DNA of 53,562 bases, counting the filler, from Stramenopiles sp. TOSAG23-6 (Eukaryota): the NCBI GenBank assembly GCA_900128565.1. It is 3 parts of 3 records of this genome, joined end to end, with 100 filler letters (N's around TTAATTAATTAA, not from the genome) between each part and the next. Parts side by side here need not be neighbours in the genome. Positions count along the whole stretch, not along the records: positions 1 to 17,830 come from LT636073.1; 2 more parts are not named here. One strand, 5' to 3'. The position numbers were made by a program, and so were the translations under genes. A model generated the notes under the pieces. That model saw only the letters and a list, made by a program, of their open reading frames with translations. It was not told where the DNA came from and ran no database searches. Shown one piece after another: positions 55-53,501 of the stretch (position 1 is the first letter of the stretch; every line of letters begins with the position of its first letter).

Positions 55-609
55 GCCAGCCGTAAATCAACTAGAGTTACATCCAAGATTTTCGTCTCCT
101 TCACTTCGCCAATTCGCAAAAGAGAATGGTATTGTTCTTACTGGTTACGGTTCAGGAAATAGTGTTCGTATTGAGCGTAATCCAGTAGTACAAACTATTG
201 CAAATCGTTTGGATGTTCGTTTCCATGATAAATTTCAACTTTTTTTTTCGTACGAAATTTTGTACCTAACAAAAAAACTTTTGAAATATTTTTCCAAAAT
301 ACATGTTTCTCCAATTTCGGTTATTTTAAAATGGACTCTGAATGTACGTTTTCAATTTCAACATGTATTTTTTTTTCATAGTAAATTTTGTACCTAACGA
401 TTTTTTATACACCAAAAAAAAATACAATACATAAAGGAGTTTCGGTTATTCCCAGAACAGCGAATCAAATGCATATGACTGAAAATTTAAAAGCAGCTGA
501 CGTGAACTTGACTAAAGATGATATTGCAAATATTGATTCAATGAATGAAGCTTGGCCATATTATTGGTGTCCACTGCCATTAACGCTTGATTCAAAGTCA
601 GATCTTTGA
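55..609 (+). CDS. Aldo-keto reductase, 3' part (exons 55-214, 305-343, 433-609)
   Basis: Spliced product reads PAVNQLELHP...IANRLDVSPISVILKWTLNKGVSVIPRT...ENLKAADVNLTKDDIANIDSMN, typical AKR C-terminal motifs. 5' end lies outside the window. Confidence 0.88.
215..304 (+). other. Non-canonical GT-AT intron
   Basis: gat|GTTCGTTT...TACGAAATTTTGTACCTAAC...AAAATACAT|gtt. There is no AG between the branch motif and the next intron. Confidence 0.82.
344..432 (+). other. Non-canonical GT-AT intron
   Basis: aat|GTACGTTTT...TTGTACCTAAC...AATACAT|aaa gga restores KWTLNKGVSVIP. Confidence 0.82.
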
Positions 610-846
610 ATGTATTTTTTTTTCATACCAAATTTTGTACCGAATGCTGCAATTCTAGTTACTGGGTTTAAAAAAAAAAGTAATATTTTAGTTTAAGAGA
701 AAAAGGCGATATACCTAGGTATATGTATAATGTATTGTACATACATTTATTTTTCTACCATTTATATATGAAATTTTAATATTTTCATTGTAAAATTCGT
801 TTGTCAAATTTCTTCAAGATTATTCCGAGAGTTTATTGAATCTGTA

Positions 847-3115
847 CTAAATTTCGTACCAATTTACAAATTTCTGACGTATTACTTTTCTCGAGAAATC
901 CTGGACAGAATCTTTTATAGCAAGCCATAAGACAGAACATTTCTCCTCTTTATTATTTTGTATGAGAGTTTTAGTGGTGTCACACTTGGCGGAACAAAAC
1001 TGTAAAGATAATCCACCACATATATCTACAAATTTATTAAATTTTCGTGTATTTACCCCAGCACTATTTTTCCAAATTGATGTTCTTAGTGAACTCTCTA
1101 AATCTTTTGATGTTTCTATATCGTTTGGATCTCTTGATGATTCATTTTTACTCTTTGAAAGATATTGCAAAAGTTTTTTTCTTCCTATTTTTTCAATGAT
1201 GTACTCAATGATCCAAGGACAACAGTGAAAGTCAATACCCGCAGCCTGAATATCGTGTATTGTGAAAAAATATTTTTTTTTTTTTGAATTTAAAAAAATG
1301 AATACGTACAAAATTTTCACAGTAAAAAAAAATGAAATTCAATTTTGAAAACGTATGCATTTTCGTAATCGTTTGTGTCTAATCGCCTCAAATGAGAGAT
1401 TCATTTGAGGAATATCACTATTTGAAAATAACGTGTTGATTATAATTTTCTCAAACGTTTGGAAATGGCTACTTTTATCACTTGTCGTCGTATTGAACAT
1501 CAATTGATGAAATCTATTTTTCCATGTATATTAGGAAAATATTTCAAAAAAAAAAATGAAAACTTGTTAGGTACAAAATTTCATACAAACAAAAATGAAA
1601 TTGAAGCTCCAACGTACATAGTAAAGCATTTTTTCGTAACAAATCCACATCAAATTCTGTGCCACCAAAACTGGCTCTCAAAAGCAAAGCTCGAATAATT
1701 GAAACTCCCGAAGAGTGCATTGGTTGTTTTTCGTGGTTTGTATTGTGAATAAATATTTGTTTTAGTTTAAAAAAAATCGTTAGATGTAAACTTTTTTTAC
1801 AAAAAAAATAACAATTCATAATGAAAACAAACAAAACGAAACAAAAACAATTGTTTAGATACAAAAAATCTTATGAAAAAAATATAAATTTGAAATTCAT
1901 GATGAAAACGTATGGGTAACTCGATATTGACCTGTAGAGTTTATTTTATGATTTTTATCATTTTTCAAAGAAATATTTATAAAATTATGTGAAATTTCCT
2001 GGTACTGACACGATGATATAGCATACACATATAAAAGAACAGTATGTAGGAAGAAAAAATATTTAAAATTCAAATATTTTGTTAGGTCAAATTTTGGCAC
2101 AAAAAAATAAAATATTTAAAATTCAAGTTTGACAACTTTCATCATACAGTTCAATTCCAGGACAAAAATCTTTACTCATAGCAGCCATTAACCATGATAT
2201 TTGTGGTAGTATTGGGTGTATTGAAATTGTATCCTCCACGCCTATGTATTTTGGAGAAATATTCCAAAAAAAAAAAAATGTTAGGTACAAAATTTCGTAC
2301 GAAAAAAAATTGAAAAAAAAAATTTAAACATACATGACAATCAAACGACGCAAAAGCTCCAAAAATGGATTTGTTTGAATATTTATGGAATTTTTATCTG
2401 TTTGAATGTTTATTGAACTTTTGTCATTTTTCTTCTGTCGTTTTCGTTCTTTTGATATTTCCTTATTCATCTTATATCGACGCATCAATTCAGACGCACA
2501 AGCTACAGCTTTATAAGATTCCCTCCGCCTGACAGTTTTTTGTATTATGCTTTTCAACATTGATATCGTAAGTCCACAGGTTGCACCTGTTGTTGTCATG
2601 GAAATAGGCTGCAAACTTTCCAAGTTCGTTGACAACACCATGAGAACCGACCCTTTTACTGATTTATCTATATTTTTGGCAGGAGAAAACATCCACTCTG
2701 AAGGATCAAAATGTTTATCCTTTATCTCAAAACTTGTAGTCCATCCTCCATTATGTTGAATCTTTGCTCGGGCGTTTGTTTTAGCCGCCTTACGCGAGTT
2801 AAAGTCTTCCCAATGGCACGTAAAATGTGTTCCATTAGTATGAATGATATTTGGATTGTATTCTAGGTGAAAATGCATCCCTCGTCCCTCAGCAGAACGC
2901 ATTAATTGATCAAAAGCATTTCCACCCATATTTCGTATAGGTTGCTTCGGATCATCAATCGGTAAAGGTCTCTTTTTATTTGATTGCATCATTCGTGAAA
3001 AGATATTTTCATTCGTGCGTTTCCCTTGAGCGACTTTCTTTGTATCACACATTTCGCATCGGGGCATACTCGAGTAATTTAGAAAAGTGCACAAAGGACA
3101 AGGCCATTGTGACAT
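847..3115 (-). CDS. Conserved uncharacterised protein with N-terminal RanBP2-type zinc finger (exons 3115-2334, 2243-2148, ~2047-1914, 1737-1618, 1523-1357, 1254-847)
   Basis: WPCPLCTFLN...CEMC zinc finger. Spliced blocks KSIIQKTVRR, LLRRLIVIGVED...HP...WLMAAMSK, LRASFGG, W.NRF, GIDFHC and IW...GVN.RK. One junction near 2047 is uncertain. Confidence 0.7.
1255..1356 (-). other. AT-AC member of the intron family
   Basis: tgc|ATACGTTTT...CACAATACAC|gat restores RKCDIQAAGIDFHC. The 5' end is ATACGT, not the U12 consensus ATATCC. Confidence 0.7.
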
Positions 3116-3522: not shown

Positions 3523-6244
3523 ATGAAGCTTGAGCTCTCAGTAGACACTGTAAAAGGTGAACATGACACCCGGTCATCAGTGCTCTCCTATCTTAGCAGC
3601 AAGTCGGCTCGGATAAAATGCGACGAGTTATTTTTAACGTGGTGCTCTGAAAAGAGAACAACTGATCTTATTCTTGGTTTTATAGATACAATTGCCAATG
3701 GAGACACTATAGATGGTAATGAGCTCTCTCCAAGACTATTCTTTCCATCAAAGTCTCCTCATGGTGAAGCCAATGGTTCTCCAACTCTATCCCCACCACC
3801 GCTTTCACCCTCAGCAATACGTACAAATAACCGTAAGCAACTTTCCTCTCAGAATAAAGCTGATCATGATAATAATATCGCTGCTTTATCTATGCTATCT
3901 GTTTCTTCTTCTTCCACAGTTCTTCGAGCAGCGGGATCTACTGATATTGCACCGAAAGTATTATCGCCGACTCGTATTGACCATACTAAAGAAACGAAAG
4001 GAAATGGAATGACAAAAAGTGTTGAAGGACAACACGGTGAAAAGAAAAATGATTCAGTAAATGAGCAAACAATTTTAAGAAAGGCCGAAGAAGCGTTGAG
4101 TGTTGATAGTGATGAAGTTGAGCACAAAGAAAATAACATAATAAACCCTGACGGAACCTCAAAAGAAAATAACATAATAAACCCTGACGGAACCTCAAAA
4201 ACTCTCGTGGAGGTTCAACAACCCCGAAAGAAAATTCGACATGTCTCATCAATGGATGAAATACCGCAGTTCTATCATAAAAAAAAGGATATACCTCCTT
4301 CTTCTAGAGTCGTAACTGCTCATATAGAAGCCATTAAAAATGCCTTTTCATCATTTCCAGAAACTCAGAAAGGAATTTTGTTAGCTGATTTCGTGTGCAT
4401 AGCCAAAACACTCTGGGGTATTCCAACATTTATGTGTCCTCTTTTATTCCGACAGATTATATTACACAAAGACAAAGAAGCAGATATAGAATCATTGGAA
4501 AAAAGGCGAAATCAAGTCACGACAAATTCATCAGATGAACAAGTACGTTTTCATCATGAATTTAATTTTTTTTTCATACGAAATTTTGTACCTAAACAAA
4601 AAAGATTTTTTTTTTGAGTTTTTATTCAATACGTTTTCATCATATTTTTTTTACCTTTTTTTTGTAAAAATCATTTCGTACCTAACAAAAAAAATATTTT
4701 TGAAATATGTTTTCGCAATAAATGGTGCAAATGTAGGGCCCCGTGTGACAGTGACTGATGCAATTCACTTTTATCACCATGGCCTTAAACCATTTTCTCA
4801 TACAGAAAGAAGTATGTTTTATTTTTTTTCAATTTCGAATTTATTTTCGTACGAAATTTTGTACCTAACAAATTCTAGTTTTTTTTTTTTTAAATATTTT
4901 TCCAAAATACAATGTTTCGATTACTGAAAAGACCAGGTGTGGATTTTCTTACTTTTGATGATTTCATGCCTATGCTAGAAGAACTTCTAGCATATCATGT
5001 ATGTTTCCATCATTGATTTTATTTTTTTTGGTAGAAAATTTTGTACCTAACGATTTTTTACTGAATAAAAACAAAATATATATTTTTCACAATACACCCA
5101 GGTCTCGAATTTTTAGAATCAACGCCTGAATTCCAAGAAAAGTATGCGCGTACCGTAATCACTAGGATATACTACGTGTGCAATCGCGCTCAGAATGTTT
5201 GTTTTATCATTGATTTTTTTTTTTTACGATGAAAATTGAAAGATTTCGTATCTAATGATTTTCACATTGTAGAAAATATTTTTTAACTACACATGGTCAT
5301 TTAACTTTGAGTGAACTTGAACGCTCAAATCTTGTTGAAATGATGACTGTTGTTGACGAAGAAGAGGACATTAATAAGGTGGAACAGTTTTTTTCATATG
5401 AACATTTTTATGTTGTTTATTGTAAGTTTTGGGAACTTGATACTGATCATGATTTTTTATTGACACCAGCTGATCTTCTTAGATATGGAAATCATTGTTT
5501 AACAAGAGGAATTGTCGATCGTATTTTTGAGAAAGCAATTCGGCCCTTGAATCCAGGTCCCCCTGATAAAATGACGTATGAAAATTTCTGTTATTTTTTT
5601 CTTTCTGAGATAGACAAGTCAAATCCAATATCTATACGATATTGGTTTCCATTAGTTAATGTAAATTGTGATGGTGTGTTCGTTTTCGTCATTCATTTCA
5701 AATTTATTTATTTTTAATACAAAATTTTGTACCTAACGATTTTTGTAAACCCAAAAAAACATTTTTTTCATAATACATAATTAGGCATCGAGAAATGAGA
5801 GAAATGTATGCTGAGCAGCTTCAAAGAATGGAATCATTAGGGCATGAAGTTGTGCCATTTGAGGATGTTATGTGTCAAATGTGTGATTTACTACAACCTG
5901 CAATTCCAGGAGAATTTCGTGTTCGTGATTTTGTACATTGGGATAAGATTGAAAATTCAGGTGTATTTTTTGACATGTTATTTAATCTAAGTGAATTTCT
6001 TGCGTATGAGCAAAGAGATGTTTTTGCACAAAGACAAATGAAACAAAATGAACCAAATACAACACCATGGGAAAGGTATGCTAGAGACGAATATGCGAGA
6101 TTAGCGATGGAAGAAGAGATGCGTGAGATGGGTGTTTCTGATGAAGACAATGAATTCAATGAATTTGAGCATACCGATGAACTTGATAACTGGGGGACTG
6201 GTAGTCGTATCATGTATGATGGTGAAATGGAAGATGAAAAGTAA
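3523..6244 (+). CDS. PPP2R3: Protein phosphatase 2A regulatory subunit B'' (PR72/PR130 family; exons 3523-4542, 4724-4811, 4913-4998, 5098-5196, 5295-5677, 5779-6244)
   Basis: [50 protein letters not shown]-hands and [17 protein letters not shown] are hallmark B'' motifs. Confidence 0.93.
4126..4200 (+). repeat. 36-bp in-frame tandem duplication ([12 protein letters not shown] x2)
   Basis: aaagaaaataacataataaaccctgacggaacctca occurs twice. Confidence 0.9.
4812..4912 (+). other. Non-canonical GT-AA intron
   Basis: aga a|GTATGT...AATACAA|tg ttt restores [11 protein letters not shown]. Confidence 0.78.
4999..5097 (+). other. Non-canonical GT-AC intron
   Basis: cat|GTATGT...AATACAC|cca ggt restores the conserved HPGLEFL. 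The CAG 4 nt downstream would cause a frameshift. Confidence 0.85.
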
Positions 6245-6411
6245 AAACAATGTAGACAAAAGATCTATACAAAGTGTATAAATTTAAATATATCACATGA
6301 GATATAAAAAATATTCTTCGATTTCGCATTTGTTTATAATTAATTTCTATTTTGTAATAGGTAAATTGAAAACAACACTAGTTGTAAAAAGAGTTATATT
6401 TTTTAATACAA

Positions 6412-9400
6412 CTACATTTTGAGCTCAATATGTGCTCCACGCTGAATCAATTTCATTGCGGCACTGTAACTAATAGCAACAGGCACACCACTGAGTTTCA
6501 TAGCATTGTATAAATCCGGTGCATCCTCTATTTTCGCATGCATAGCCATATTTATCAAGCAGTCATACGTTGCAGTATTGGGACTTAAATCGTCATTGAC
6601 AAGAGCTTTGAAAACTGACATTGCCCTTTTCCATTGTGATGCGCGACTGCATGCGTCGAGTACAGAGTTATAAGTAGTTAGTTTAGGCTGAATTTGAAAC
6701 CTCTTCATCTCCCACAATATTCCGACAGCTGCATCAGCCGCGGGAGGTTTTGCATATTTACAAGTAGAAATTATCGCAGTAAATGTGGAGAGATCTGGTC
6801 GAATATCCCTTTGAACCATAACATTGAAAACGTACATAGACTCCCGCCATTTACCCGTTTTACATAAGTCGCGTAGTATTCTCAAATATAGGCTTCTAGC
6901 TTTCACCATGTCACTAATGGTTACATGTGCAGTAGGAGTTATTTTTCTAACTACTTCAAGATTTGCAATAAAATCTGGAGCTATCGTGTATCTTTCTGTT
7001 TCTTCCTTTTCTATATTAGTAACTCTACGATTTTGCAATACTCCATTAGATTTCTTTCGTTTCGATGCTAATTGTATAGCATCATCAATATCCCCTCGTT
7101 CATCCACAAATTTGGCACGTAATTCAGCAAGTTGAGAATTTTTAAGTTTCTCTAAACTTGCCAAGTCATTTTTTAAACGAGTTACTCGAGAATGTTGAGC
7201 CCGGAAAGCTGGATTTCTTTTAGTTTCATATACGATGCATCGTTTCCTTAATTCTTGTAGCTCGGTGTGNATTTCTTTTCCAGATGCAAATGGTAGTTGT
7301 AAGCCTAATGCACGCATAGCAAATGCTATATGAGAAGCATTGCTCTTATCTTGAAGTAACTCCCCAACATGTTCAACGCATTTAGTTACCCGTTGTCTCC
7401 AACCAGAGCTTTCAGCTAGGGAAAGATGTTCTGTAATACTCAGAGCTTGATTGATGAACCGTAAATATTCAGCCTCTAGCTCGACCAACTTTTCCTTTGC
7501 CTGGCATAGCTGTACACGTCTCTGTGATACAATCATATTACTGTTGGTCTTTATACGATCATAATTGAGTTGTGTGCTCTCAGTTATTTGATGGCGCTTA
7601 ATAGATAAATCTGCTAATTCCGTTTTTGCCTCAGATGCTGCAATAACTTTTGCAATTCTTTCTTCCATTATCTTTTCGCGTTCTTGTATTACACGAGATG
7701 TTTCAGTTTCTGCCTGGCGAATTTGGTTTTTCACTGCTACGAGGAGCTCATGCGAAGAATGCTTACCATCACGCATCCATCTCTGTTTACATTTCATGGC
7801 TGCGTGACGTAGTTTCATTGAGCGCTGTTTTGGACTAAGATTAGTATGTTTTTTTGGAACATCTATATTTATGTCCTCGACATCTTCAATATTTTCTATT
7901 TTCTTTTGAGAGCCATGTTTCTTCTGTGTATCAGAAAATAATCTTCCAAACATCATGGCATATATTCGTAAGATTCCATCTGCCCTCGCCCCAAATCCAG
8001 GTGATGGCTTGCAAAGACCTTTTCGAATATTCATGTGTTGAAGTTTAACCCATTTAGCCATTTGTGCAACATATTCCCTTGGAAGAACATACGGCTCATC
8101 GTGTCCAGGTGGTGAAGCATCGAGACTAGCACCACGTAAAAGAAGGAGCTCTGTTGCATCAGCACATCCCCACTTAATACACTTGAGAAGTAATCTACTT
8201 CCATCAACAATTGTATCTGGGTCTAAACCCCGAGAAAGTAACGTGGCAACAAATGCAGCGACAGGGAATTGCCATGCTCGACGAAATAATCGATCCAACC
8301 AACACACACTACCCATCGCTGCCATCACAGGAGCAGAAAACAAATACTCAGGCCGAGGTGCATGGTGTGTCATTTTTATTATTTTTCGTACTAAAGCTGG
8401 TTTCCAAAGGTTCCAACTAGCTTTTGTTCCACCAATGGTAGTGTTTGCTGCAGCGCGTCGAAGTGCGTGTTGCTTTGGATCTAACTGAGACCATGNTTTG
8501 TTCTTTTGAGCAAATCCATCCGTTGAGCAAAGTAGGCGACGAATTATCATCACAGAGGAATAGCAATTCTTCCAATTGTCCGTGATATTAGGTGCAAGGA
8601 ACGCTGGGTCTGTACCAGTGGACATAGCAAGTCTACAAAACCATGGCCTCCATTGACTTTTTTGCACCTCGCTAGACATAATTTTAGCACGCCATACTTT
8701 ACATACAAGTTCTGCCCGACAAAGCTCTCGGGGGTTCAACACAAGACCTCGGCTTAATGCGCATTGCAAGGCCACCACTGCACCTTGCATACTCTGAAAA
8801 CGTTGTCTTGCTTTATAGTAATGCCAAGCTGCTTGGGCTTTTCGTACCGAACGAAGATATCTTGCTCGCCGACGGTGTATAAACCCTCTCACAAAACGTT
8901 GTAAATTACGCATCGGGCGCATAGTTCCTTTTACCTTTTTAACTAAATCCCAATGGAATAAAACCATCGATGTACATCGTCGTGCCACTTGTTTTCTTTC
9001 TCTTAATATTTGCATTCTATCGGCCCTTATAAGCGCTTCAATTCTATCAGACTTTAATGCTTTATGTCTCTGACGTTCCATAGTTTCCCACCTCTGTCGC
9101 ATGAACATTCTTTTATCTGCATCAAGATCTTTCATTTGGCGCATTGTGCGTTTAATAGTTTCCAGGCGTGTTACGGATATACCATGCGTCACACCCGCTT
9201 CAGAATCAGAATCTGAAGCATCTGATAGAGGATCGCCATCGACAACACTATTTACACGCATTATTTGGGTTGATTCGATTCTGTCTTTATCCCCGTGATA
9301 TGTTGAACAATGAACAAAAAGTTTCTCTGATTCGACGAGACCTCTCATAATTTTTAATTCTTTACTTGGTTTATTTTCTTCTCTGAGCTTTCTCTTTTTT

Positions 9401-12400
9401 ATTCTCCTTTTCATTTTTGCCTTTCTTTGTTTTTTATTCAACCTCCGTACATTATTCGATGCAACGGCCGATAAATTTTCGTCGGTGTTACTATTTTCAC
9501 TCTCTGATGAACTATTACTGCTCTCTTCTTCTTCACTTTTTGACTCATTTTGAACTAAACCCTCTTCTTCGGAACTAGATTCATCATTATTATTATCTGT
9601 GTCAGTCGCTTCGCTAAAATCTTCATTTTCCAAATTTCCATTTTGGTCCTTCTGCTTAGCTTTGAGGAATTTTCGCAATTGTTTACGGCGTATTTTATAA
9701 GGAATAGCATTGCCGCTTTTGTCTCGAACCCACGGTTTGCCTCTACCTTCTGTTTCCCATAACATTGTTCCATGATTTGCAGGCGCAATACCTGTGGGAA
9801 ATAATCTATTGCTTCGTTTTATCACCACGGAAATTTCAGTATTACATGGAATAAATAAACCCCTTTTAGCTACCAATATCAATGTGTGTGTGTTTCTATA
9901 CCATGCTGAACTAAAATCTTTGCCATGAGACCCGGATATTGAACATGGTATAATATCATATGCAGATGAAAGACATGGAAGCGTGAATACAATTCGATTA
10001 GAAGATTGAATGGAAATATTTGATTTCCACTGTATCGTAACTTCTGAAATTTGTTTCGCAAAGTTAGGCTTGAAAAAAACGCTTGAGTCATAAAAAATAG
10101 CTTTTGAAGATTCAACCATCTTATGTTCGAAAGCAGAAGTTGCCAGTGCAAGAAGCATTTTGTGTCGCTCCAATGATGTCTTTGCTGTTTCAATTACATA
10201 TGACTCAATTAATAGTTCGTTTTGTAGCGCTTCTTCCCGAGCAATATTTGTTGCAATTACCCTCTCCGCAGCTTCCTTTTCTTCACGGAGCAATTGTTCT
10301 TGCATACTCTCTCGTTTGTAACCTTCAGTATTCTCTGAGCCAATTTCCCGAATACCTTTAGCTACATTTTTCAAGTACCAGTCGGTAAATTCCTCAAATG
10401 TAACACTTCCATCACCACTTGAATCCATCTCAGAAAACGCATCATTCAGTTTTTTATTTGATAGAAAACCCGTTAGTTTCTCGCCAAGCGCTTCCGCAAG
10501 TTTACGCACTTCGTTTTTGTCTAATTCGCCAGATTTGTCTTCATCAAGTTGGTCAAATAGTTTACGAATCTTGCCCATCATCAGTTTTTTTCTTTCAATC
10601 GCACTGTAAGCTTGCCCATTTTCATTGAAGAAGCCTATTCCGAGAGGATCAAGTCTCTTCTCCTTTTCCCTTATGTTTTTTTGTTCATTCAAAATTCGTT
10701 TCTTTTCCTTCTTTTCAGCTTGGATTGCCTTTTGCGATTTACGTTTTTCATCGCGTGCGCGTTCTTTAAGAGTCTTTTTCAATTCTTTTTCTGTGAGTGT
10801 CTTATCATTTTCATCGCGTTTGCGAAGTTCTTCTTTTTTCAGTTCTTCACACCGAATTGTATCAGCTTCAGAAAAAGCAATTTCTTTCATTACCGTTCGC
10901 TGACGATTCTCTTCCCTTTCCATCGAAACTCTTTCTCGTTTCATATTTAAACATTCCTTGTGTTGTTTTTCTTTTTCGCATAAATCTATTCTCATCAAAG
11001 CTACCCAATGACGCTCTTCTTCATCAGAGTCACTAGAAAGACTAGGATCATCCTCTGATGAAGCTAGAGCCTCTTCCCATATTGGAAGTGGACCTCGGTT
11101 TCTTCTCCGAATAGCACGACGTCGTCTTCGAACTATTTGAGCAACGCGCTTACGCTCTTTCTCAACAAGCGCTATAGCATCATCATCTTTGCTCTGGATT
11201 TCTGCCTCACGGCGTAGCTTGAAAAAATATTTCTTGTATTTTTCTTGGGCATCAATAAAAGCAGGTACGAGACATTCAAGCTCACTATGACGCGCACACA
11301 ACTCACTTTCTATTTTTGCTTGTTCGATTGGTGTGATGTCACCACTTCGCATTGGACCAAACGGACGAAGGGCAGCAATACGCGCATCTAAGTAATTTTG
11401 AAGAGTACATTTATCCTTATTGCAAGCTTCCATAGCAGCTTTTGATTTATCCATATTTTCCCGGAGTCTCTTAATCTGAGCATTGTTCCATATATTATCG
11501 AAACTTCTTAGTTTATCTATTAGGTGCTCTGAATTTGAAACATTTTTCTCGCAAAGCTCCTTTTGCTTTTTCAGAGTATCTAAATCTTCTTTCCATTTCT
11601 CTTCCTGTAGAACTTTGAGGTCAGTACGTATATCATCCATGTCATCAAAACAGTCTTCCATTTTTCGTGTTGCATCAGTCAAATCATTATATAATGATAC
11701 CAAAACTTCAGAAACATCCGTGCGTTCTTCTACAACAAATTCATCATAATCTGGTAATGGTTTGAACTCACCTGATGCGTCAGCTTCTTCTTTCCATTGG
11801 GATTGAAATAATTTATCTGCCTTATCTCTTTTTATTTGTGAATTTTTGTGCTTCAGCATAGCATCTTTAAGCATTGAGTTTAGACTACGTATATCTTCAT
11901 CACGCAATGCTGAAATTTTCTTTTTATATTCAACTTCTGCTAGAACTCCTTCGAATCGTCTCTTTGTGGCAAGCCTTGATGCTTTAATGAGTAGTACTCC
12001 TTCAGAATCCGAGCTTGGGTTGGATTCAGATGGTATTGAAATTGGTTGGTCGTATTCTATAACATCCTTTGTTTCTATAAATGGATTAAAATTATACACT
12101 CTCCAATAATCTGTTTCTGCTGATGGACTCGATGCGGTCAAAGCCAAAGCAGCAGCTCGCTTCATTGTATCTTCTTTTGTCCATTTTTTTCCAACCAATG
12201 CAGAAATTATACCGCGTGAATCCTTTTCTTTGTTTCTTTGTTCCAGAATGATTTCTTTATGAAAATTTTCTGCCCATTCGACACTAGAAGTTGTAACCTG
12301 TTTTTTACGATTGACTCGCGCAATAGATGCTGCTTCCAGCTTTTGATTCAAATTAAGTCGCTCTATTTCCAATGGTTTTATAAGGACATCAATGCCGAGA

Positions 12401-15400
12401 ACTTCTTTTTCAGCGACTTTAAGTGCATTTATTGCATTTTTCATTATTCTTTCTTTATCAAGATCTTCTTCGTCAACCATATTAGCTTTTTCCATTTTCT
12501 TTTGAGCTTTACTTAATAATATATCCACATTATTTTTACTTTCATTGAATGGGATGAGCTCTACATTAATTTGCTTGATTCTATCCTCATATAGTGAACA
12601 TTGTAAATAATCTGACTTTTGCATCAAAATTTCTATTACTCGCTTTCGTCTCTCCAATTCAGCACTTGCAGCATATACGCAGAGACTCATGGCGCGTAGA
12701 GCACAAGGAACGACACGTTTCTCATTAAGGTTTGTTTCTTTTGCGAAAAATCTCGACTTCAGTATTTCTATATTATCTGATACATTGTTTTCAAAGGCAG
12801 TAGCTAAATTTGGTGCATCCCCAGGAAGCATCCATTCCTTAACATTCCCTTCGGGGATATTATTTAGCAATGTTTTGTACATTTCTTTGTCTTCTTGTTC
12901 AGCTCGCCTTGCAATATTTGTTAAATCCTTTAAAACTTTAAATGCCTCTTCCGCATTTTTCTTTAATGTCTCAATTCCTTTACGTTCTTTTTTCAGCATA
13001 CTTGCTCGGATCCGTTTGGATTTTGCGAACTTGGTTAAACGTCGAATTATAATATGAGATGATTGATCTTTTTCTGTCTTATCTTTCTTACTTTCGTGGA
13101 AGGCTTGATTCACTTTCTTGGTAGCTTCTACAGCTGCAATTTTCCCACNCTTTTCCATCTCTAAGGCCACAGACGCTTTGGATTCCAGCTGTAAATATGT
13201 CTCACGCGCATCTCGCAAATTTTGTTTTGACAAAATCATGTGTTTGTAAGATTTTTTCCATTTATCATGCGATTTTAATAGAATATCCCATTTTGTTTTA
13301 TGGTTTTTGTGTAACAAGAATCGTTTTCTTTTAGCCTCGATATCGAGTTTGTCATTTTGTACTGAGGCTTCTACATCACTACGAGCGTACATTTCTGATA
13401 TGTACCTCATTGCAAGCATAAAACCCGGTGATTGAGTTAATCCACTTCCTGTAAACTCGCTCAATGAAATTAACTGTACACTCCTAATTTCTTTATTGAA
13501 CGTATCGGTTTTTCCCACACCGTTTTCTTCGAGATCATTTGTTATATGGTTTAAATGCATCGCCGGTTCCACATTATATTGAGAAAGCTCTACTAAACAT
13601 TTAGAACTCTCGCGTACCACATGGTCAAATTGTTTCTGTAACTCTATTTTTTCCTCCATTGTAATTTTCGCCTTTGCTTTAGATTTTCCAAGTGAGCGAC
13701 GCGCAATCATCTTTTTATGTTTTGCAATTTTTGCTTCGCTTTCTGCTTTCCCCAATTCGATTATATGCGCANCCTTCAATGCTTTAGTAGGAATGTAGTC
13801 GATTGCTACTAACGCTGCAAATATTTTATCCTTTTCACTACTTAGACGCGATACTTTCTTTAGGTCTAATTCTTGATTTTCAATCAATATTTGTAATTCT
13901 GAGAGTAATCCTTTAGCTGTCTCTGCTCGTTGTTCTGCTTCAAATCCCAATCTTGCGACGTTTTGAGCATCTTGAAAATGTAATAATCTTTGTTCTGCTT
14001 CTGATTTTGATTTTTCCATTCTTGAAATTTCGTTGTTCGTAAGTTTTAGTAATTCAGTATAATTCTCTAATTTCTTTAATCGTTTTTGTTCCGTCTCTTC
14101 AGAAATAAGTTCGTTTAAGATAAGACGTTTTTTCACCAATTTGTCTCTAATTTGTCTCATATTATTTTGTGAATGAATTAATTGTTCTGTTGCCTCTTTA
14201 TTTGCCGCCTCAGCTTTGGCCAGTGCTTTTCTGTGAGTACTTAAGAGAGACATCTTTATATTAACCCTTTTGAATACTTTAGAAAAACGTTGGAAATTCA
14301 ATTTTGATTTGGACCTTTCTCTATTTCCACTTTTTACTGGAGTTTTAGCTTCATCTGTGACAATTTCAGATGTGTCTATTTGANCAACCGAGTTTTCGTT
14401 TTCGAGTTCTTCTTCATCGGCGTCTACATTTTTCTCTTTCGCAACATCAACATTTGCAGCTGCATCCATTACATTATTCGATGTCTCTAAAACCTTTTCT
14501 TTGGCAAACTTATATACAATTTCTGCATCTTCAAAAGCTCGCTGCAATTTTTTTACAATTGGGCGAAGTTTCGACAACCTCAAAGTTCGTTTTGAAATAT
14601 CAAAAGGCAAGAAGTCATCCTTAATACGGTTGTAAGCCGTAACTAGCTTTTCATATAATTGTGTTTTTTTCAAGTTTCCAAGATTATCATCATTGTTTCC
14701 ATTGACTTCAATTGTTTTGTTATTCCTTTCTACATCATTGTCACTGTTATCCGAATCAGAACTTGAATCATCCTCAGAGCCATCAGCAGCACTGTTAATC
14801 GCACCCATTGTACCATGTATATCATTGTATGCTTTTTCGGCCGCAGACTTTGCAACTTCAACTTTTGATTTGAGTATATCTAAATCATAATCAATTTGTT
14901 GAAGATTGCGAAGTTCTTTTAATTTTAGCTTGACATCGTTTTGATCTTGAAGTAATTTAATTACATCTAGCTTATGATTCCGAATCTCTAGTTCACGAGA
15001 TGCAATTTCCGCAGNCGTGAGCATTTCTTTAGAAATTTGGTCCACAAGGTGTCCTTCTTTCATTTGAGTNGTTTCTTCAATATCTTCTTGTTCAAACTGT
15101 AAATCATCTAACTTTTTTTCCAATGCATTAATTTTTTCTGATTCCAAGATTCTTATACGTCGCCGAGGAATATTGTAAAACTCGCGATCGTTGTTGAGCC
15201 GCACTGTAAATTTAGTTTGGACAATATTTGGGTTTAATGAATCAACGCCTACGATAAATCCANGACGCCAATCGCGGCGATATATTTCATTGTCGCTCTC
15301 TGGACGTTTATATGTTTCGGCATAAGGATCATCNTCAGTGATTACTAATGTTTTAGACAATAATTTCAGTTCTGCAATACTACTACCATCTTTTGTTTTT

Positions 15401-17805
15401 TTGATTTTACTTTTTTTTTTCTTATCATGATCAGATGTAACTCCATCAATGTTAGTATCCACAGGTACTTCCTTTAACTTTTTTTTACGGGCTTTTATCT
15501 TTGTCAAGGAGATTTCACCAAAGTCCTCGTCAGAAGAAGTTGCCATATCTTCTGCTTTTTTGATTTCTGCTTCTAATGCAGCAACCTTTGCTCTTTCTTC
15601 TTCCTTCTTCTTCAAATAAATGTTCCTTGCCTCCTCNGTGGGCATATTATCTAAAAGCATTTTCTCATTATTCTTTTTATTATCTGCTAGGCTCTTTGTC
15701 TTTTTCTCCGCCCTTTTCATTTTCTCAGCTTCTCTAGCCTCACGGAGTCTCTTCTTATCAAAGAAACGCATCCTAGCAGACTCCTCGAGCTTTAAAAGCA
15801 TATCAACTTCTGATGCACGTTTCCGCAGCAGGCGGCGCTTTTGACGGGCAGCGCGTCGCTGAATTTTACCTTCTCTAAGAATTTGTAGATAGGTAGTAAC
15901 AGCATTATTGTCATCTCCTTCTCTCAACTCTTGGAGCTTCTTTAGTTCGTCTTCCTTGCGCCTCTTACGAAAAGCAGATCGGCAAGCAATCCGAAATTTC
16001 TTATTCCTCGCCAATTTTCTAGCATTGTATCCTGCTCTTTCATTTTCTTCCATCCTTGCAATTCTATCTGACTCAAGCTGTTTCTCTTTAGCCTGTCGCA
16101 CAGAGCGTTTATTTAACTTTCGAGTATTGTCAACAACTCGGTCAGGTTTTACAATATCTTCGTCAGATTCGACATTTGAATCAGTATCAGAATCTTTATG
16201 TTCTTTTTCACTATTGGCTTCAACAAAAGAGTTTCCATTGACAATCTTTTCATCATGTTTTTTAGCTAGCTTCTTTTGTTTGTCTGATTCTTTCTTTAAT
16301 TTACTTTTATTAGTCCCGATATATTGTCCATCTTCATCTGGATCTTCATCAGAATCACCAAAACTTACTTCTACAAATGTTGCATCGTATGTAGCTCCTC
16401 GCCGTGGAAAAAGCATTCGTATATTTTTACCCATTCGCTCTCGGCGACGTTCATCGCGGAACCATTGTAATTCCTTTTCTCTATCGGTTTTATGCAAGGC
16501 TTTCAAATCAGCCCTTTTAGCCTTTGTTGCCGCATCTACCATTGCTTTGCGTTCAGCTTTGGATTTTTCCATTTCTCTAATACGATCAATGTTACGGACA
16601 TCTAATGACAATTGATCAGCTTCTATCATGAGCATTCGTCTTTCACTTAATGCAATGCGCATTTCCCGCGTTTCATATGATGCAGCAGTAAATCGGGCAT
16701 TACTTAATGTTCTTCGTGCTAAAGTTACGATTTCGAGTTCGGGTGATTCTCCTTCGACATTATCACTATTATTTATATTCAAATCTTTATCATTCACCTG
16801 ACTTAATACAAAGGCAAGTTGTTTCTCAGCCTTTTCTACAGCAACTCTAAGCGCATTCAGTTCAGCTACTTCTTTTTCAGACTCCATATCTACTTTTTCT
16901 CGTGCACGTGAGTGGGAAAATTCCACAGACATTAATATTTGTTCATACTGTCGCATCACCGCCTCTACAGCTCTATTGGAGGCACGATGGGCAATTGATA
17001 CAGACGACTTTGTTTCACGAATAATCTCTTTAATTCTTTGCTTCAGAGCTTTTGCATCTTCAGCTTCTTTGGCTTCCGCCTCAGCTACTCGACGAGCTTT
17101 TTCATCCGCTTCTTGTTTCTCCCGAGACTTCTTTTCTGCGATTTCGCGCGCATACTTATCTTTACTTTCCCATTCTTCAAGTTCTCTTTTTGCACTTTCC
17201 AAAAGCTTTTCAGCTTCAGCTTTATCGGGACCCTCTTTTGCCAGATTGAAGGCCTCTTTGGCTAATTTTACTCGTTTACGAGCCTGTCTCAAAGCTCTAG
17301 ATGCCAGTTTTGCATCAGTCTTGGCCATCTTTTCTTCCTCTTGTCTATGCAACGCCGCTTCAGCTATTTCACGTTGCATTTGCCGCTTTTTCATGCGTAG
17401 TTTTGCCGCATGTGCTCTCGCTAAAGTCTCTGCTTTTTTTTGGGCTTTCTTCTTTTTACGTTCTATTTCAGCCTGTTTTTCAGCAACCATTCGAAGCTTT
17501 TCCTCTTCTTCTCGTTCTTTTGCATCTATTTCATCTTGAATCCTTTTTTCTTCCCTTTGTTTTTCTCTCTCAGACTCTTGTATGCTAAGCAAGTTTTCTA
17601 ATTTTTGTAATTCCTTTGCAATCAATATCCGACGTCGGCGTTTTTTACTTCCTCCACCCATAGCTCCATCAAGTTTTCGACGTAATTCGAGTAGCTTTGC
17701 AGATAACTCAATAGGGGTCCAAGTTTTGTGCTTAATAATATTGTGTACACCAAGGTTTTTAATATTTTTTGTAGTTGAAATCCGGGATTTACTAATTGGT
17801 AACAC
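6412..17805 (-). CDS. Giant intronless coiled-coil protein with an EF-hand pair, IQ motif, ankyrin-like repeat and C-terminal PPR repeats (5' end truncated by gap)
   Basis: 11.4-kb ORF containing FDQLDEDKSGELDKNE and MDSSGDGSVTFEEF (EF-hands), LQRFVRGFIHRRR (IQ), ATELLLLRGASLD (ankyrin-like) and PKLTTYNSVLDACSRASQWKRAMSVF (PPR). Confidence 0.85.
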   Translation of the reverse strand: MLPISKSRISTTKNIKNLGVHNIIKHKTWTPIELSAKLLELRRKLDGAMGGGSKKRRRRILIAKELQKLENLLSIQESEREKQREEKRIQDEIDAKEREEEEKLRMVAEKQAEIERKKKKAQKKAETLARAHAAKLRMKKRQMQREIAEAALHRQEEEKMAKTDAKLASRALRQARKRVKLAKEAFNLAKEGPDKAEAEKLLESAKRELEEWESKDKYAREIAEKKSREKQEADEKARRVAEAEAKEAEDAKALKQRIKEIIRETKSSVSIAHRASNRAVEAVMRQYEQILMSVEFSHSRAREKVDMESEKEVAELNALRVAVEKAEKQLAFVLSQVNDKDLNINNSDNVEGESPELEIVTLARRTLSNARFTAASYETREMRIALSERRMLMIEADQLSLDVRNIDRIREMEKSKAERKAMVDAATKAKRADLKALHKTDREKELQWFRDERRRERMGKNIRMLFPRRGATYDATFVEVSFGDSDEDPDEDGQYIGTNKSKLKKESDKQKKLAKKHDEKIVNGNSFVEANSEKEHKDSDTDSNVESDEDIVKPDRVVDNTRKLNKRSVRQAKEKQLESDRIARMEENERAGYNARKLARNKKFRIACRSAFRKRRKEDELKKLQELREGDDNNAVTTYLQILREGKIQRRAARQKRRLLRKRASEVDMLLKLEESARMRFFDKKRLREAREAEKMKRAEKKTKSLADNKKNNEKMLLDNMPXEEARNIYLKKKEEERAKVAALEAEIKKAEDMATSSDEDFGEISLTKIKARKKKLKEVPVDTNIDGVTSDHDKKKKSKIKKTKDGSSIAELKLLSKTLVITXDDPYAETYKRPESDNEIYRRDWRXGFIVGVDSLNPNIVQTKFTVRLNNDREFYNIPRRRIRILESEKINALEKKLDDLQFEQEDIEEXTQMKEGHLVDQISKEMLTXAEIASRELEIRNHKLDVIKLLQDQNDVKLKLKELRNLQQIDYDLDILKSKVEVAKSAAEKAYNDIHGTMGAINSAADGSEDDSSSDSDNSDNDVERNNKTIEVNGNNDDNLGNLKKTQLYEKLVTAYNRIKDDFLPFDISKRTLRLSKLRPIVKKLQRAFEDAEIVYKFAKEKVLETSNNVMDAAANVDVAKEKNVDADEEELENENSVXQIDTSEIVTDEAKTPVKSGNRERSKSKLNFQRFSKVFKRVNIKMSLLSTHRKALAKAEAANKEATEQLIHSQNNMRQIRDKLVKKRLILNELISEETEQKRLKKLENYTELLKLTNNEISRMEKSKSEAEQRLLHFQDAQNVARLGFEAEQRAETAKGLLSELQILIENQELDLKKVSRLSSEKDKIFAALVAIDYIPTKALKXAHIIELGKAESEAKIAKHKKMIARRSLGKSKAKAKITMEEKIELQKQFDHVVRESSKCLVELSQYNVEPAMHLNHITNDLEENGVGKTDTFNKEIRSVQLISLSEFTGSGLTQSPGFMLAMRYISEMYARSDVEASVQNDKLDIEAKRKRFLLHKNHKTKWDILLKSHDKWKKSYKHMILSKQNLRDARETYLQLESKASVALEMEKXGKIAAVEATKKVNQAFHESKKDKTEKDQSSHIIIRRLTKFAKSKRIRASMLKKERKGIETLKKNAEEAFKVLKDLTNIARRAEQEDKEMYKTLLNNIPEGNVKEWMLPGDAPNLATAFENNVSDNIEILKSRFFAKETNLNEKRVVPCALRAMSLCVYAASAELERRKRVIEILMQKSDYLQCSLYEDRIKQINVELIPFNESKNNVDILLSKAQKKMEKANMVDEEDLDKERIMKNAINALKVAEKEVLGIDVLIKPLEIERLNLNQKLEAASIARVNRKKQVTTSSVEWAENFHKEIILEQRNKEKDSRGIISALVGKKWTKEDTMKRAAALALTASSPSAETDYWRVYNFNPFIETKDVIEYDQPISIPSESNPSSDSEGVLLIKASRLATKRRFEGVLAEVEYKKKISALRDEDIRSLNSMLKDAMLKHKNSQIKRDKADKLFQSQWKEEADASGEFKPLPDYDEFVVEERTDVSEVLVSLYNDLTDATRKMEDCFDDMDDIRTDLKVLQEEKWKEDLDTLKKQKELCEKNVSNSEHLIDKLRSFDNIWNNAQIKRLRENMDKSKAAMEACNKDKCTLQNYLDARIAALRPFGPMRSGDITPIEQAKIESELCARHSELECLVPAFIDAQEKYKKYFFKLRREAEIQSKDDDAIALVEKERKRVAQIVRRRRRAIRRRNRGPLPIWEEALASSEDDPSLSSDSDEEERHWVALMRIDLCEKEKQHKECLNMKRERVSMEREENRQRTVMKEIAFSEADTIRCEELKKEELRKRDENDKTLTEKELKKTLKERARDEKRKSQKAIQAEKKEKKRILNEQKNIREKEKRLDPLGIGFFNENGQAYSAIERKKLMMGKIRKLFDQLDEDKSGELDKNEVRKLAEALGEKLTGFLSNKKLNDAFSEMDSSGDGSVTFEEFTDWYLKNVAKGIREIGSENTEGYKRESMQEQLLREEKEAAERVIATNIAREEALQNELLIESYVIETAKTSLERHKMLLALATSAFEHKMVESSKAIFYDSSVFFKPNFAKQISEVTIQWKSNISIQSSNRIVFTLPCLSSAYDIIPCSISGSHGKDFSSAWYRNTHTLILVAKRGLFIPCNTEISVVIKRSNRLFPTGIAPANHGTMLWETEGRGKPWVRDKSGNAIPYKIRRKQLRKFLKAKQKDQNGNLENEDFSEATDTDNNNDESSSEEEGLVQNESKSEEEESSNSSSESENSNTDENLSAVASNNVRRLNKKQRKAKMKRRIKKRKLREENKPSKELKIMRGLVESEKLFVHCSTYHGDKDRIESTQIMRVNSVVDGDPLSDASDSDSEAGVTHGISVTRLETIKRTMRQMKDLDADKRMFMRQRWETMERQRHKALKSDRIEALIRADRMQILRERKQVARRCTSMVLFHWDLVKKVKGTMRPMRNLQRFVRGFIHRRRARYLRSVRKAQAAWHYYKARQRFQSMQGAVVALQCALSRGLVLNPRELCRAELVCKVWRAKIMSSEVQKSQWRPWFCRLAMSTGTDPAFLAPNITDNWKNCYSSVMIIRRLLCSTDGFAQKNKXWSQLDPKQHALRRAAANTTIGGTKASWNLWKPALVRKIIKMTHHAPRPEYLFSAPVMAAMGSVCWLDRLFRRAWQFPVAAFVATLLSRGLDPDTIVDGSRLLLKCIKWGCADATELLLLRGASLDASPPGHDEPYVLPREYVAQMAKWVKLQHMNIRKGLCKPSPGFGARADGILRIYAMMFGRLFSDTQKKHGSQKKIENIEDVEDINIDVPKKHTNLSPKQRSMKLRHAAMKCKQRWMRDGKHSSHELLVAVKNQIRQAETETSRVIQEREKIMEERIAKVIAASEAKTELADLSIKRHQITESTQLNYDRIKTNSNMIVSQRRVQLCQAKEKLVELEAEYLRFINQALSITEHLSLAESSGWRQRVTKCVEHVGELLQDKSNASHIAFAMRALGLQLPFASGKEXHTELQELRKRCIVYETKRNPAFRAQHSRVTRLKNDLASLEKLKNSQLAELRAKFVDERGDIDDAIQLASKRKKSNGVLQNRRVTNIEKEETERYTIAPDFIANLEVVRKITPTAHVTISDMVKARSLYLRILRDLCKTGKWRESMYVFNVMVQRDIRPDLSTFTAIISTCKYAKPPAADAAVGILWEMKRFQIQPKLTTYNSVLDACSRASQWKRAMSVFKALVNDDLSPNTATYDCLINMAMHAKIEDAPDLYNAMKLSGVPVAISYSAAMKLIQRGAHIELKM

Positions 17806-17830
17806 TTCAACCTTTTGGACAGATTCATTT

Positions 17831-17930
17831 NNNNNNNNNNNNNNNNNNNNNNNNNNNNNNNNNNNNNNNNNNNNTTAATTAATTAANNNNNNNNNNNNNN
17901 NNNNNNNNNNNNNNNNNNNNNNNNNNNNNN
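17831..17930. other. Assembly gap with TTAATTAATTAA linker (17875-17886)
   Basis: N-run interrupted by a 12-mer that has stops in all six frames, a typical contig-joining spacer. Confidence 0.9.
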
Positions 17931-17983
17931 TACGAAATTTCGTATGAAAAAAAAATTAAATTAGAAATTCATATAAAACATAC

Positions 17984-27666: not shown

Positions 27667-27697
<31 letters not shown>

Positions 27698-29157
27698 ACA
27701 TGAAAACGAAAACATACATTGGTCGAAGGATCTCTGTCCACTTCGACAACACGAGCGTTCATCCAGTTCGAAGATGTTCCAGAAGAATTAAGCTTTTTCC
27801 CCTCTACGCGATCATTTACACGAAAGTTTCTCCAATTTCCAACTTTTGAATATTTTGGTTGTAATCGACTGCGTTCGGTTTTCCAATTAATCCACTCATC
27901 CCATCTCGATGCCCAACCTCTATAATGAACTTTAACACGAAATTCTCGATGATTTGTTTCAATAATATCAGCTTCCCACCATTTATTCTGAGAATCTATA
28001 CCATCACAGCGACCCCATGCATTGTGAAAAAAAAAATCAAATGTTTTTTGTTAGGTACAAAATTTCGTATGAAAAAAAAAATTCGAAATTGAAAACGTAC
28101 CGACAGCAAGTTGTGAACGCCAGTTATCAGATAATTCTTCGACATCACGAGGCCATTTACCATTGGCGTTTAATTCTTCCACTAAAATCTCACACGAGTC
28201 TTCAACTCCAGCAAGATCCTGAAGATTACCATCAATACCAACAAGCTGCCATGGATTATGAAAAATATTTCAAAAATTAAAATTGTTAGGTACAAAATTT
28301 CGTATGAAAAAAAAAATTGAAATTGAAATGAAAACGTACATGCTTCTACTTCATTACCTCTGGAGGTTGGTCTCGACCAAAGTCGAATTCGTGACTTGGC
28401 TACTTTATATTGATTGGCGACGATTTCTAGAAGTTTGGTTAAGGTTTGATTTCGTGAAAGCAAAACTCGTTGATACATGTATTGTGAAAAAATATACATA
28501 TTTTTTTTTCTGTACAAAAAAATGATTAGGTCCAAAATTTCGTATAAAAAAATAAATTTGAAATTGGTAAAACATTGAAATGAAAACGTACATGCCAGAG
28601 TGAATATTTTCACGATCTGTTGCAGACACTATTTCTGCTTTACCAGCTAAATCAGCTTTAATTAAGTCAAAAACTAAAGGGTGAACTTCAACAGATAATT
28701 TCTTTTCAGTACCACGCACAATGACTTCACGACGTAAAACTATTGAGCAACCATATAATTTAACGAGTACAATCCAAGCTTTTTCAGGAACAGCAGTGTA
28801 ATCTTGATCATAAAAACAATCTTTACGAACCTCTTGACCAGATCCTGTTACAATAGTACTGTTATCAATTGGACCAGGTCGTTCACCACCTATGGACAAC
28901 TCCTTTCTCAAACTCAATTTCTCCTCAAAAACACGCTGAAGGTCAGTTTTGTTTTCAGACATTGGACTTCCAGGTGTCAGCTCCATTGATTCATTTGCAA
29001 GCGACTCGCAAGGTACAGATGCTTGGTAATCGTTCCATGCTTGGAACCACTTAACCGGTAGGATATACCAAATAGAACCAAGTGTCAACTTTGAATTTTT
29101 GATTACTTTTGCAACTTCCGACTCTGTAAGAAATGAATCATCCATATTTGGAGGCAT
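25049..29157 (-). CDS. Ubiquitin-specific protease, USP4/11/15-like, with DUSP, UBL and Tudor/Agenet-like inserts (exons 29157-28592, 28476-28340, 28250-28101, 28016-27718, 27607-26488, 26387-26064, 25970-25704, 25614-25049)
   Basis: DUSP (WY...KWF..W, PGPIDN), Cys box GLRNLGNTCFMNSILQC, QQDAQE..FLLDGLHED and His box NHSGGLGGGHYTAY. Confidence 0.9.
25971..26063 (-). other. Non-canonical GT-TT intron
   Basis: cgt t|GTACGT...CACAATACTT|gt act. The exon also ends in TT. Confidence 0.78.
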
Positions 29158-29483
29158 TTTCAGAACGTATTATTGACAATAGACTCTCACTAAATGACAC
29201 AAAATTTTACTTTGGATTAAATAAAGAAACTTCTGAGAGAGAAATCAATGTTAATCGTGAATAAGATCTAGATCTCTAATTATTTTTCCCTTTTAGTTCA
29301 ATCTAATCAAAATGGTGCGTCGGATGATGATGAAATGATTTGTAACTTCTACGTGAATAACACGAAATCAAAGAAATCGGCGAGGGTCTGAGAAAAAAAA
29401 CGGAAAAAATGAGAAGCTTCCATTTATACTAATAACGGTTAATTGTTCAAGACTTGAAGAGAAGTTGAATCTATCTGAAAGCA

Positions 29484-34023: not shown

Positions 34024-34106
34024 AAGGTTATTTTTGAATAAATTGTTTTCGTAGTACATTTTATACGTAACAAAACAAATTATATTTGTGTATACAATTT
34101 TATTTT

Positions 34107-52310: not shown

Positions 52311-52347
<37 letters not shown>

Positions 52348-53470: not shown

Positions 53471-53501
<31 letters not shown>

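Follow-up and report, generated by a model that had tools for sequence, protein, structure and literature searches.

How is the downstream end of an intron chosen when the intron does not end in AG? The terminal AG is among the most constant signals of eukaryotic gene expression, and the question is raised by a window (the whole stretch of DNA analysed, 53.6 kilobases or 53,562 nucleotides (nt), in three joined parts from the Stramenopiles sp. TOSAG23-6 assembly GCA_900128565.1) that is eukaryotic, probably from a marine stramenopile, and AT-rich (GC content 0.21 to 0.41) and whose introns are copies of one repeated family, most of them ending AT. They interrupt, among others, the PP2A B'' and AKR genes on the + strand and the USP gene (25052-29169) on the - strand. 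Their junctions are placed to the base, AG is absent at most of them, and the introns are present in genomic DNA. It is highly probable that they are spliceosomal, that they belong to an introner-like family which has recently multiplied, and that the family's own motif sets the 3′ splice site.

Introns of one family

Thirty curated copies lie between open reading frames, and the addition of 27608-27717 brings the number to 31, spread over at least eight genes. The copies are 84-124 nt long, apart from one fused pair of 181 nt, and a family profile built from 25 copies gives 53 hits in the window. The 5′ consensus is GTAYGTTTTC, a branch-like TTTGTACCTAAC follows, and the 3′ end is TTTTTCACAATACAT, directly before the exon. 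In the aligned flanks the common unit consists of a 5′ GTAYGTTTTCATC, a T-rich middle, (T)TCGTACGAAATTTTGTACCTAAC, a spacer of 31-48 nt and a 3′ block, TATTTTTCACAATACAT. Allowing two mismatches, the 12-mer TTTGTACCTAAC occurs 60 times against 6.1 expected, and none of 100 shuffles reaches 60. ACCTAAC, with at most one mismatch, is present in 28 of the 30 copies and is followed by a T-rich tract; the candidate branch adenosine, predicted from the motif, lies within TACCTAAC, and 31-48 nt separate the last base of the branch motif from the 3′ end (28 copies).

The 5′ end is GT in 28 of the 30 and AT in the other two; all 30 carry G at +5, then T at the next two positions (+6, +7). The 5′ site is of the canonical U2 type and the branch, assigned by motif, of the CTRAY type. 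The canonical AG is found at three of 30 3′ ends (three of 31 with 27608-27717, a further GT..AT copy outside this tally): the termini are GT..AT in 21, GT..AG in three, GT..TT in two, and GT..AA, GT..AC, AT..AT and AT..AC in one each. The last intron base is T in 24, G in three, C in two and A in one, the penultimate base is A in 28, and the copies ending AG carry it at the same motif position at which the others carry their non-AG ends. Copies starting ATATGT or ATACGT are seen at 21390-21482 (+), 1255-1356 (-), 53201-53322 (-) and 4629; since two AT-starting copies lie between long frames that join correctly, the first intron base seems to be tolerant too.

On the exon side, -2 is A in 20 of 30 and -1 is T in 21, and the downstream exon opens with G in 18, giving a ligated consensus AT/G (the slash marks the junction here and below) and not the usual AG/G. 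By hand count, the exon end and the intron end share their last dinucleotide in 18 of the 30, mostly AT, and differ in 12. The shared bases may reflect an insertion-site preference or a common reader of both sites. At 5678 the two dinucleotides differ, and P0002 (a relative at 86%, from a contig of 571 nt) has DGVIRSREM unbroken across the position of the intron; the uninterrupted relative and the differing dinucleotides together speak against a target-site duplication of the simple kind. In an alignment of 24 copies no inverted termini can be seen.

P0002 itself, after FFDMLFN, diverges into unrelated sequence, possibly at an intron that has another position in this relative. That its tail is a translated family intron was considered and dropped, tblastn against the window giving E values of 0.1 or worse.

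The sequence of the window recurs in DNA runs and in several seawater metagenomes. In one of the latter 9037 contigs match the window, chiefly at its intron parts, and the similarity of metagenome contigs breaks at 4812 and at 54-56. Many further joints in these contigs run from the 3′ end of one family copy to the 5′ start of another.

Junctions placed by frames and relatives

The 3′ ends were placed from the conserved block only, which gives 5097, 20269, 24589, 25615 and 28251 independently; at 41245, where a weight matrix favoured 41243, the frame supports 41245. For a test by frame, the longest open frame was taken on each side of an intron with the junction ignored. On removal of the motif-defined intron these frames join in all 28 evaluable cases, the chance for each being one in three, and the remaining two of the 30 units are ambiguous in this test, yet consistent. 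PP2A B'' and USP between them have eleven junctions that, aligned with relatives, show no gap at the junction itself.

For PP2A B'', the protein spliced at the motif ends was aligned to P0013 (83% identical over the queried exon), to three oomycete proteins and to one labyrinthulomycete protein; its nearest named relatives are oomycetes, at 64-66% identity, and two EukProt records are nearer. Four junctions lie in conserved sequence and are gapless: HTER/MFRLL at 4812-4912 (HTER/IFRLL in P0013), AYH/PGLEFL at 4999-5097 (in all five homologs), RAQN/GHLTL and CDG/V/IRHREM. The fifth lies in a variable region, where the two copies of 4543-4723 are fused at ..CAATAC/GTTTTC, about 4634.

All eight exons of the USP gene map in sequence onto P0133 (70% identical over the queried exon). 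Its seven junctions are all colinear with P0133, six with exact residue continuity; at the seventh (28339/28251) P0133 has a two-residue insertion just upstream. Pfam searches with the short exons were uninformative for 28251 and 25615. The exon 27718-28016 is Tudor-knot-like (Pfam E=1.6e-5).

The AKR gene holds the case in which an AG is least to be had. The branch motif of its intron 215-304 is at 271, and no AG follows before 380, which already belongs to the next intron. With no AG from 271 to 379, the exon 305-343 is without any AG acceptor, just as the original prediction had it in describing this exon and the intron tail before it as devoid of AG. Against the solved AKR structure 4fzi_A, the upstream exon matches to residue 218 (extrapolated to about 221) and the downstream exon from residue 236 (extrapolated to about 235), and the 13 residues of 4fzi_A that remain between these flanks equal the 13 codons of the exon. 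Just past the AKR stop codon, at 605-690 (+), is a degenerate family copy ending ..TTTTAG, which may be an intron of the 3′-untranslated region or a decaying copy.

RNA and DNA contigs across the introns

A contig of 196 nt from poly(A) RNA (X9 record 26) matches 5293-5443 with its letters 46-196, and its first 45 letters are unmatched there. It leaves the genome at the predicted non-AG acceptor 5294, allowing for an AT that is ambiguous; the nearest AGs are at -22 and +17. On the DNA side, X4 record 4, a contig of 1285 nt from a different seawater metagenome (2024), runs colinear with 5153-6437, spans two introns, shows no difference at the ends 5294 and 5778, and has there the same depth as at neighbouring sequence. 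Its colinearity means that the introns are present in genomic DNA and that no error of a single assembly accounts for the AT ends.

These contigs bear on whether the elements are removed from RNA at all. If they stayed in it, they would be insertions in pseudogenes, DNA that is eliminated, or artefacts of assembly or amplification, and it is true that family sequence is present in thousands of metagenome and RNA-library contigs, though unspliced RNA or contaminating DNA could account for those from RNA libraries. Retained elements, however, would destroy PP2A B'', USP and AKR, whereas frames are preserved across the elements wherever this could be evaluated, the separate DNA metagenome carries two of the introns in colinear sequence at the depth of their neighbours, and the RNA contig breaks at an intron end. 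The chance that the elements are not removed is accordingly put as the faintest of those weighed here. The genes are not pseudogenes, since frames and conserved residues are intact, and the original prediction, which named pseudogenes as one way in which it might fall, is not undone on that account.

The related loci in metagenome contigs (80 loci kept out of 354 relatives; top identity 64%) include no transcript of the same species, and the family profile gives no hit in these 80 or in six viral loci. A 17-mer scan of viral contigs returned six single matches, none of which is a family copy, and they were taken as chance.

AG dinucleotides that are passed over

Could the AGs close to the motif ends serve after all, with donors shifted to suit, so that the non-AG ends are an illusion of frame and splicing is of the canonical GT-AG kind? 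The original prediction was that such AGs would break the frames and must be bypassed, and at individual introns this is what the sequence gives. At 5097, where a CAG (5099-5101) puts an AG at +4, the consensus donor joined to that AG leads to a stop after four codons. The AG at +5 of 28251 (- strand) likewise leads to a stop after four codons, the AG at -5 of 41245 shifts the frame and leads to a stop after eight, and the TACAG at -5 of 25615 is out of frame. The caveat entered at the same time also holds, in that in-frame AGs follow 20269 (at +12 and +18) and 24589 (at +9 and +27).

Two of these cases need qualification. There is always another GT in GTAYGT, four bases inside the intron, and AG is at +4 at both 5097 and 432; at 5097 the pair of GT at +4 and AG at +4 is in frame, but makes HVCLEFL of the conserved HPGLEFL. 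At 28251 the AG at +5 is in fact used, together with an upstream donor, by an existing gene model for USP, P0132 (EukProt record GSMAST32.ASY1.ANO1.897.1), with loss of residues that P0133 keeps.

P0132 is canonical GT-AG splicing put into practice. It differs from the exons of the window by 0-2 mismatches per exon, and so models essentially the same sequence. Judged by P0133 it is distorted at all seven USP junctions: it lacks 11 residues at 28477, VEAWQ at 28251 and 10 residues at 25971; it translates through the intron 26388-26487 and includes intron-derived residues at 25615; and it omits the whole 100-residue exon 27718-28016, which affects both flanking junctions. At each distortion P0133 retains what the non-AG model predicts, the Tudor-knot-like exon among it. 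The alternative by which the original prediction allowed that it might be overturned, AGs used with compensating events, is embodied in P0132 and fails against the homology with P0133.

In 13 of the 27 non-AG units the AG that comes first after the branch motif is out of frame; in one it is in frame with a stop behind it, in one there is none within +60 nt, and in 12, about the chance rate, it is in frame. Four of these 12 (5778 at +6, 26388 at -21, 28017 at +21 and 28477 at -33) are covered by a relative, and in all four the relative holds exactly the residues predicted from the non-AG end; the AG at +6 of 5778, for one, would remove a conserved IR.

What speaks for nearby AGs and shifted donors, then, is an existing model close to the window in sequence, the constant second GT and the 12 in-frame first AGs. 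The model's losses of 5-11 residues, its translated introns and its skipped exon, the HVCLEFL product, the AKR exon with no AG available and an RNA contig whose match starts at 5293, 22 nt past one AG and 17 nt before the next, make it very improbable. That AG scanning cannot explain these genes is borne out by the frames, by the residues of relatives and by the AG-less AKR exon, and the alignment of alternative products to relatives, proposed as a check, comes out for the non-AG prediction in PP2A B'' and USP.

The register of the cut

Exons and introns mostly end AT, so that GT..AT and a shifted AT..AC often yield the same messenger RNA. The boundaries might therefore lie 2 nt to the left, AT/GTAC...ATAC/AT, which would make these AT-AC introns of the U12 type or of the rare U2 type; the 18 of 30 introns with shared end dinucleotides suit both registers, and ACCTAAC is loosely like a U12 branch site. 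Split codons separate the two. The codon GT/A at 5677/5779 encodes V, present in all five homologs, and not I, with which shifts of -2 and +4 are out; G/GG at 28101/28016 encodes G and not W, which disposes of -1 and -2; and P at 5098 and T/TT for F at 25614 are incompatible with +1. Shifted, the introns with other exon ends would start GC, GT, GA, CG or TA. The 5′ site of U12-type introns (ATCC at +3 to +6) occurs in none of the 30, all of which have G at +5, and the branch-to-end distance is 31-48 nt where about 10-20 would be looked for. An AT-AC reading thus retains a very slight probability, and the residues at split codons indicate that the register is GT..AT.

How the 3′ end may be recognised

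The finding to be explained is a cut at the end of the motif irrespective of AG. Each copy, about 90-115 nt long, would bring its own signals, namely GTAYGTTTTC, the branch-like TTTGTACCTAAC, the T-rich tract and the 3′ block TATTTTTCACAATACAT, and the cut would fall directly after the block, at 31-48 nt from the branch motif and with no regard to which base is last. GTAYGT, invariant from +5 to +7, together with the CTAAC-type branch and the T-rich tract, indicates the major spliceosome. Such a U2-type spliceosome would accept U, C or A in the final position of the intron, with the acceptor specified by the motif and the upstream A and not by scanning for AG. In spliceosome structures both acceptor bases are paired, A with the branch A and G with the 5′ G. 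Plausibly, the first of these contacts is kept here and the second relaxed.

A non-AG end could also be reached without a motif being read as such, either by distance from the branch point, which is how U12-type introns choose their 3′ site, or by pairing of AUACAU with the 5′ junction AU/GUAU, as in the non-conventional introns of euglenids. The exon-end AT and the intron's GTA are complementary to the last five intron bases UACAU, as the logos show. The distance, however, is anything between 31 and 48 nt, and the cut is nonetheless at the motif end, from which it follows that the block and not a ruler marks the site. RNAalifold finds no consensus pair in 24 copies (the intron alone, exon bases being outside the alignment), and the ends are to that extent unlike those of euglenid introns. 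The AA- and TT-ending introns (4812, 25971 and 22272) have an identical dinucleotide at the exon end, not a complementary one, and the two AT-starting introns have no compensating change at -3. A ruler or an end pairing is thus improbable, and recognition of the motif remains the reading to which the following points apply.

Several things weigh against it. The direct RNA evidence is one contig of low depth (X9 record 26), and the joints listed (15 of 410) include no junction read, all of them being repeat-to-repeat. The first AG is in frame in 12 of the 27 non-AG introns, with four of the 12 comparable with a relative. The in-frame AGs after 20269 and 24589 could be used instead of the motif end, and for 22272-22375, which ends TT, the true acceptor may be an AG in frame at +3. 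AGs are also what the existing gene model, P0132, splices at. In the tails from branch to 3′ end AG is under-represented (9, against 20.4 +/- 3.4 in shuffles), and this scarcity could mean that AG still competes. It could also have been inherited from the founder copy; as the copies share ancestry, it is not an independent sign of selection. Finally, the mechanism of recognition is an inference from the introns of the window.

As to how the copies arose, the repeat has its limits precisely at the splice sites and has no clear terminal inverted repeats, so that the family may spread by exact copying of the excised intron. Insertion appears to favour ..AT/G sites.

Coordinates and neighbouring sequence

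Table 1. Family introns of the window, and the short AKR exon, with their termini and what bears on each junction (positions count along the window).
Position	Strand	Gene	Feature	Termini	Junction
215-304	+	AKR	family intron	GT..AT	tail without AG; frames join
305-343	+	AKR	exon, 39 nt = 13 codons		no AG
344-432	+	AKR	family intron	GT..AT	frames join, 103 + 58 codons; AG at +4 out of frame
1255-1356	-		family intron	AT..AC	frames join, 58 + 135 codons
2244-2333	-		family intron	GT..AT	frames join, 352 + 39 codons; AG at +2 bypassed
4543-4723	+	PP2A B''	twin of two fused family introns	GT..AT overall	frames join, 348 + 67 codons; poorly conserved region
4812-4912	+	PP2A B''	family intron	GT..AA	phase 1; joins 107 + 33 codons
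4999-5097	+	PP2A B''	family intron	GT..AC	phase 0; frames of 35 + 44 codons join
5197-5294	+	PP2A B''	degenerate family intron	GT..AT	RAQN/GHLTL gapless in 5/5 homologs
5678-5778	+	PP2A B''	family intron	GT..AT	split codon GT/A; EF-hand spacing kept
20181-20269	+	RFC1-like AAA gene	family intron	GT..AT	frames join, 33 + 299 codons
21390-21482	+		family intron	AT..AT	phase 0; frames join, 66 + 181 codons
22012-22120, 22121-22210	+		two abutting family introns, no exon between		frames (273 + 54 codons) join only if both are removed
22639-22743	+		family intron	GT..AG	AG at same motif position
24498-24589	+		family intron	GT..AT	frames join, 544 + 80 codons
25615-25703	-	USP	family intron	GT..AT	split codon T/TT = F, conserved in P0133
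25971-26063	-	USP	family intron	GT..TT	PRR/CTGREM gapless vs P0133 PRQ/CTGREM
26388-26487	-	USP	family intron	GT..AT	RCRWN/SM TGNEF gapless vs P0133
27608-27717	-	USP	family intron, weak branch motif	GT..AT	DPSTN/GGKRVKLHW matches P0133 ATNGGKRVKLHW
28017-28100	-	USP	family intron	GT..AT	split codon G/GG = G, conserved in P0133
28251-28339	-	USP	family intron	GT..AT	split codon T/GG = W, in P0133 too (WQL vs WRL)
28477-28591	-	USP	family intron	GT..AT	IHSG/MYQRV gapless vs P0133 VSSG/MYRRV
30153-30243	+	CC2D2A/CEP76-like gene (Pfam hits)	family intron	GT..AT	frames join, 228 + 1259 codons
41147-41245	+	RRM-protein gene	family intron	GT..AT	frames join, 284 + 246 codons
46073-46173	+		family intron	ends AG	

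For the RRM-protein gene the best relative, P0252 (58% identity), begins near the junction, and no homolog spans 41245. After the CC2D2A/CEP76-like frame, 34020-34118 (+) has the look of a classical intron, AG/GTAAAAGG ... TACGTAAC ... CCCAG/. It is not needed, because the open frame stops at 34021-34023, just past the last Pfam domain; if real, it would be the sole non-family intron seen.

On the - strand, 6412-17874 is an open frame of at least 3820 codons without an intron, coiled-coil-like and rich in K, E and R, that enters an N gap. Its freedom from introns is exceptional, genes nearby holding up to eight family introns, and a partial family intron (the 5′ half, at 17931-17983) is found immediately upstream of it. 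The end of the window, 47000-53562, is very AT-rich (GC 0.21-0.30), with long runs of T or A, N gaps at 51731-51920 and, on either strand, numerous family copies that are partial or degenerate. Rfam and transfer RNA scans of the window found nothing.

Relation to known introns, and implications

The introns of yeast have a rigid GTATGT and TACTAAC, and the first suitable AG after the branch is used. The family resembles them in its near-invariant 5′ site and branch consensus and in a branch-to-3′ distance of tens of bases; it differs in that AGs at -5, +2, +4 and +5 are passed over. U12-type introns tolerate varied 3′ dinucleotides, and with them the family shares an acceptor that need not be AG and strongly conserved 5′ and branch motifs. 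It is unlike them in having GTAYGT in place of RTATCCTT (found in none of 30) and a branch that lies 31-48 nt from the 3′ end and not about 10-20 nt (for background on U12-type introns, PMC13326754).

Many similar copies in unrelated genes, with the repeat and the intron one and the same, are found here as in introners, which are known in aquatic protists such as Micromonas, Aureococcus and dinoflagellates, and in fungi (Gozashti et al. 2022, PMC9860276; PMC12130899). Near-identical short introns that carry their own splice signals are common to both. The families described end AG (or AC), whereas non-AG ends are dominant here (27 of 30), and in the 2025 survey families with unfamiliar ends were held suspect (PMC12130899). 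Nor were clear terminal inverted repeats or a target-site duplication found here, but only the preference for AT at the exon end. Amoebophrya, a parasitic dinoflagellate described by Farhat et al. in 2021, reportedly has non-canonical introners with variable ends, flanked by direct and inverted repeats. It would share with the present case a marine protist host, repeated intronic elements and many introns that are not GT/AG, and would differ from the single fixed 3′ motif and canonical 5′ end seen here.

Non-AG splicing by the major spliceosome also has a precedent, in the tunicate Fritillaria borealis, where a U2-type spliceosome removes non-GT/AG introns on a genome scale (Soo et al. 2026, PMC13326754). 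The 3′ ends other than AG, presumably handled by the major spliceosome, are the likeness. In the tunicate both ends are non-canonical and diverse, and divergent U2AF paralogues are implicated (PMC13326754); here the 5′ end is GT in 28 of 30, there is one 3′ motif with AT, and one family, in a protist. Neither the family nor GT..AT introns in marine stramenopiles were found in the literature, including passages of PMC5269757 and PMC5778133 on single-cell genomes of marine stramenopiles, supplements being outside the search. Introners and non-AG splicing by the major spliceosome are thus each known, and are here combined in another lineage and another form, with a 5′ end that is canonical, one 3′ motif throughout and AT as its commonest ending.

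A wider proposal can be put forward tentatively, and is rather unlikely to hold in full: that in this lineage of uncultured marine protists most or all introns are one introner with an ..ACAU acceptor, which multiplies by exact copying of the excised RNA, and that the major spliceosome no longer strictly needs a terminal G, or reads a 3′ motif of ~15 nt in its place. The same change of G to U at the exon end (CAU/GU compared with CAG/GU) hints at an altered reader shared by both sites, for example a small nuclear RNA (snRNA) or a U2AF1-like factor.

If the interpretation of non-AG ends set by a family motif is true, the lineage, a free-living protist with a canonical 5′ site, would be a natural experiment on the choice of 3′ splice sites, complementing the tunicate and simpler than it, as a single motif of a single family is concerned. 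A further consequence touches what is read from such genomes. As P0132 is wrong at all seven USP junctions, protein catalogues of uncultured plankton that admit GT-AG introns alone are likely to hold systematic deletions, retained introns and skipped exons, and surveys of introners that depend on annotation would overlook families of this kind.

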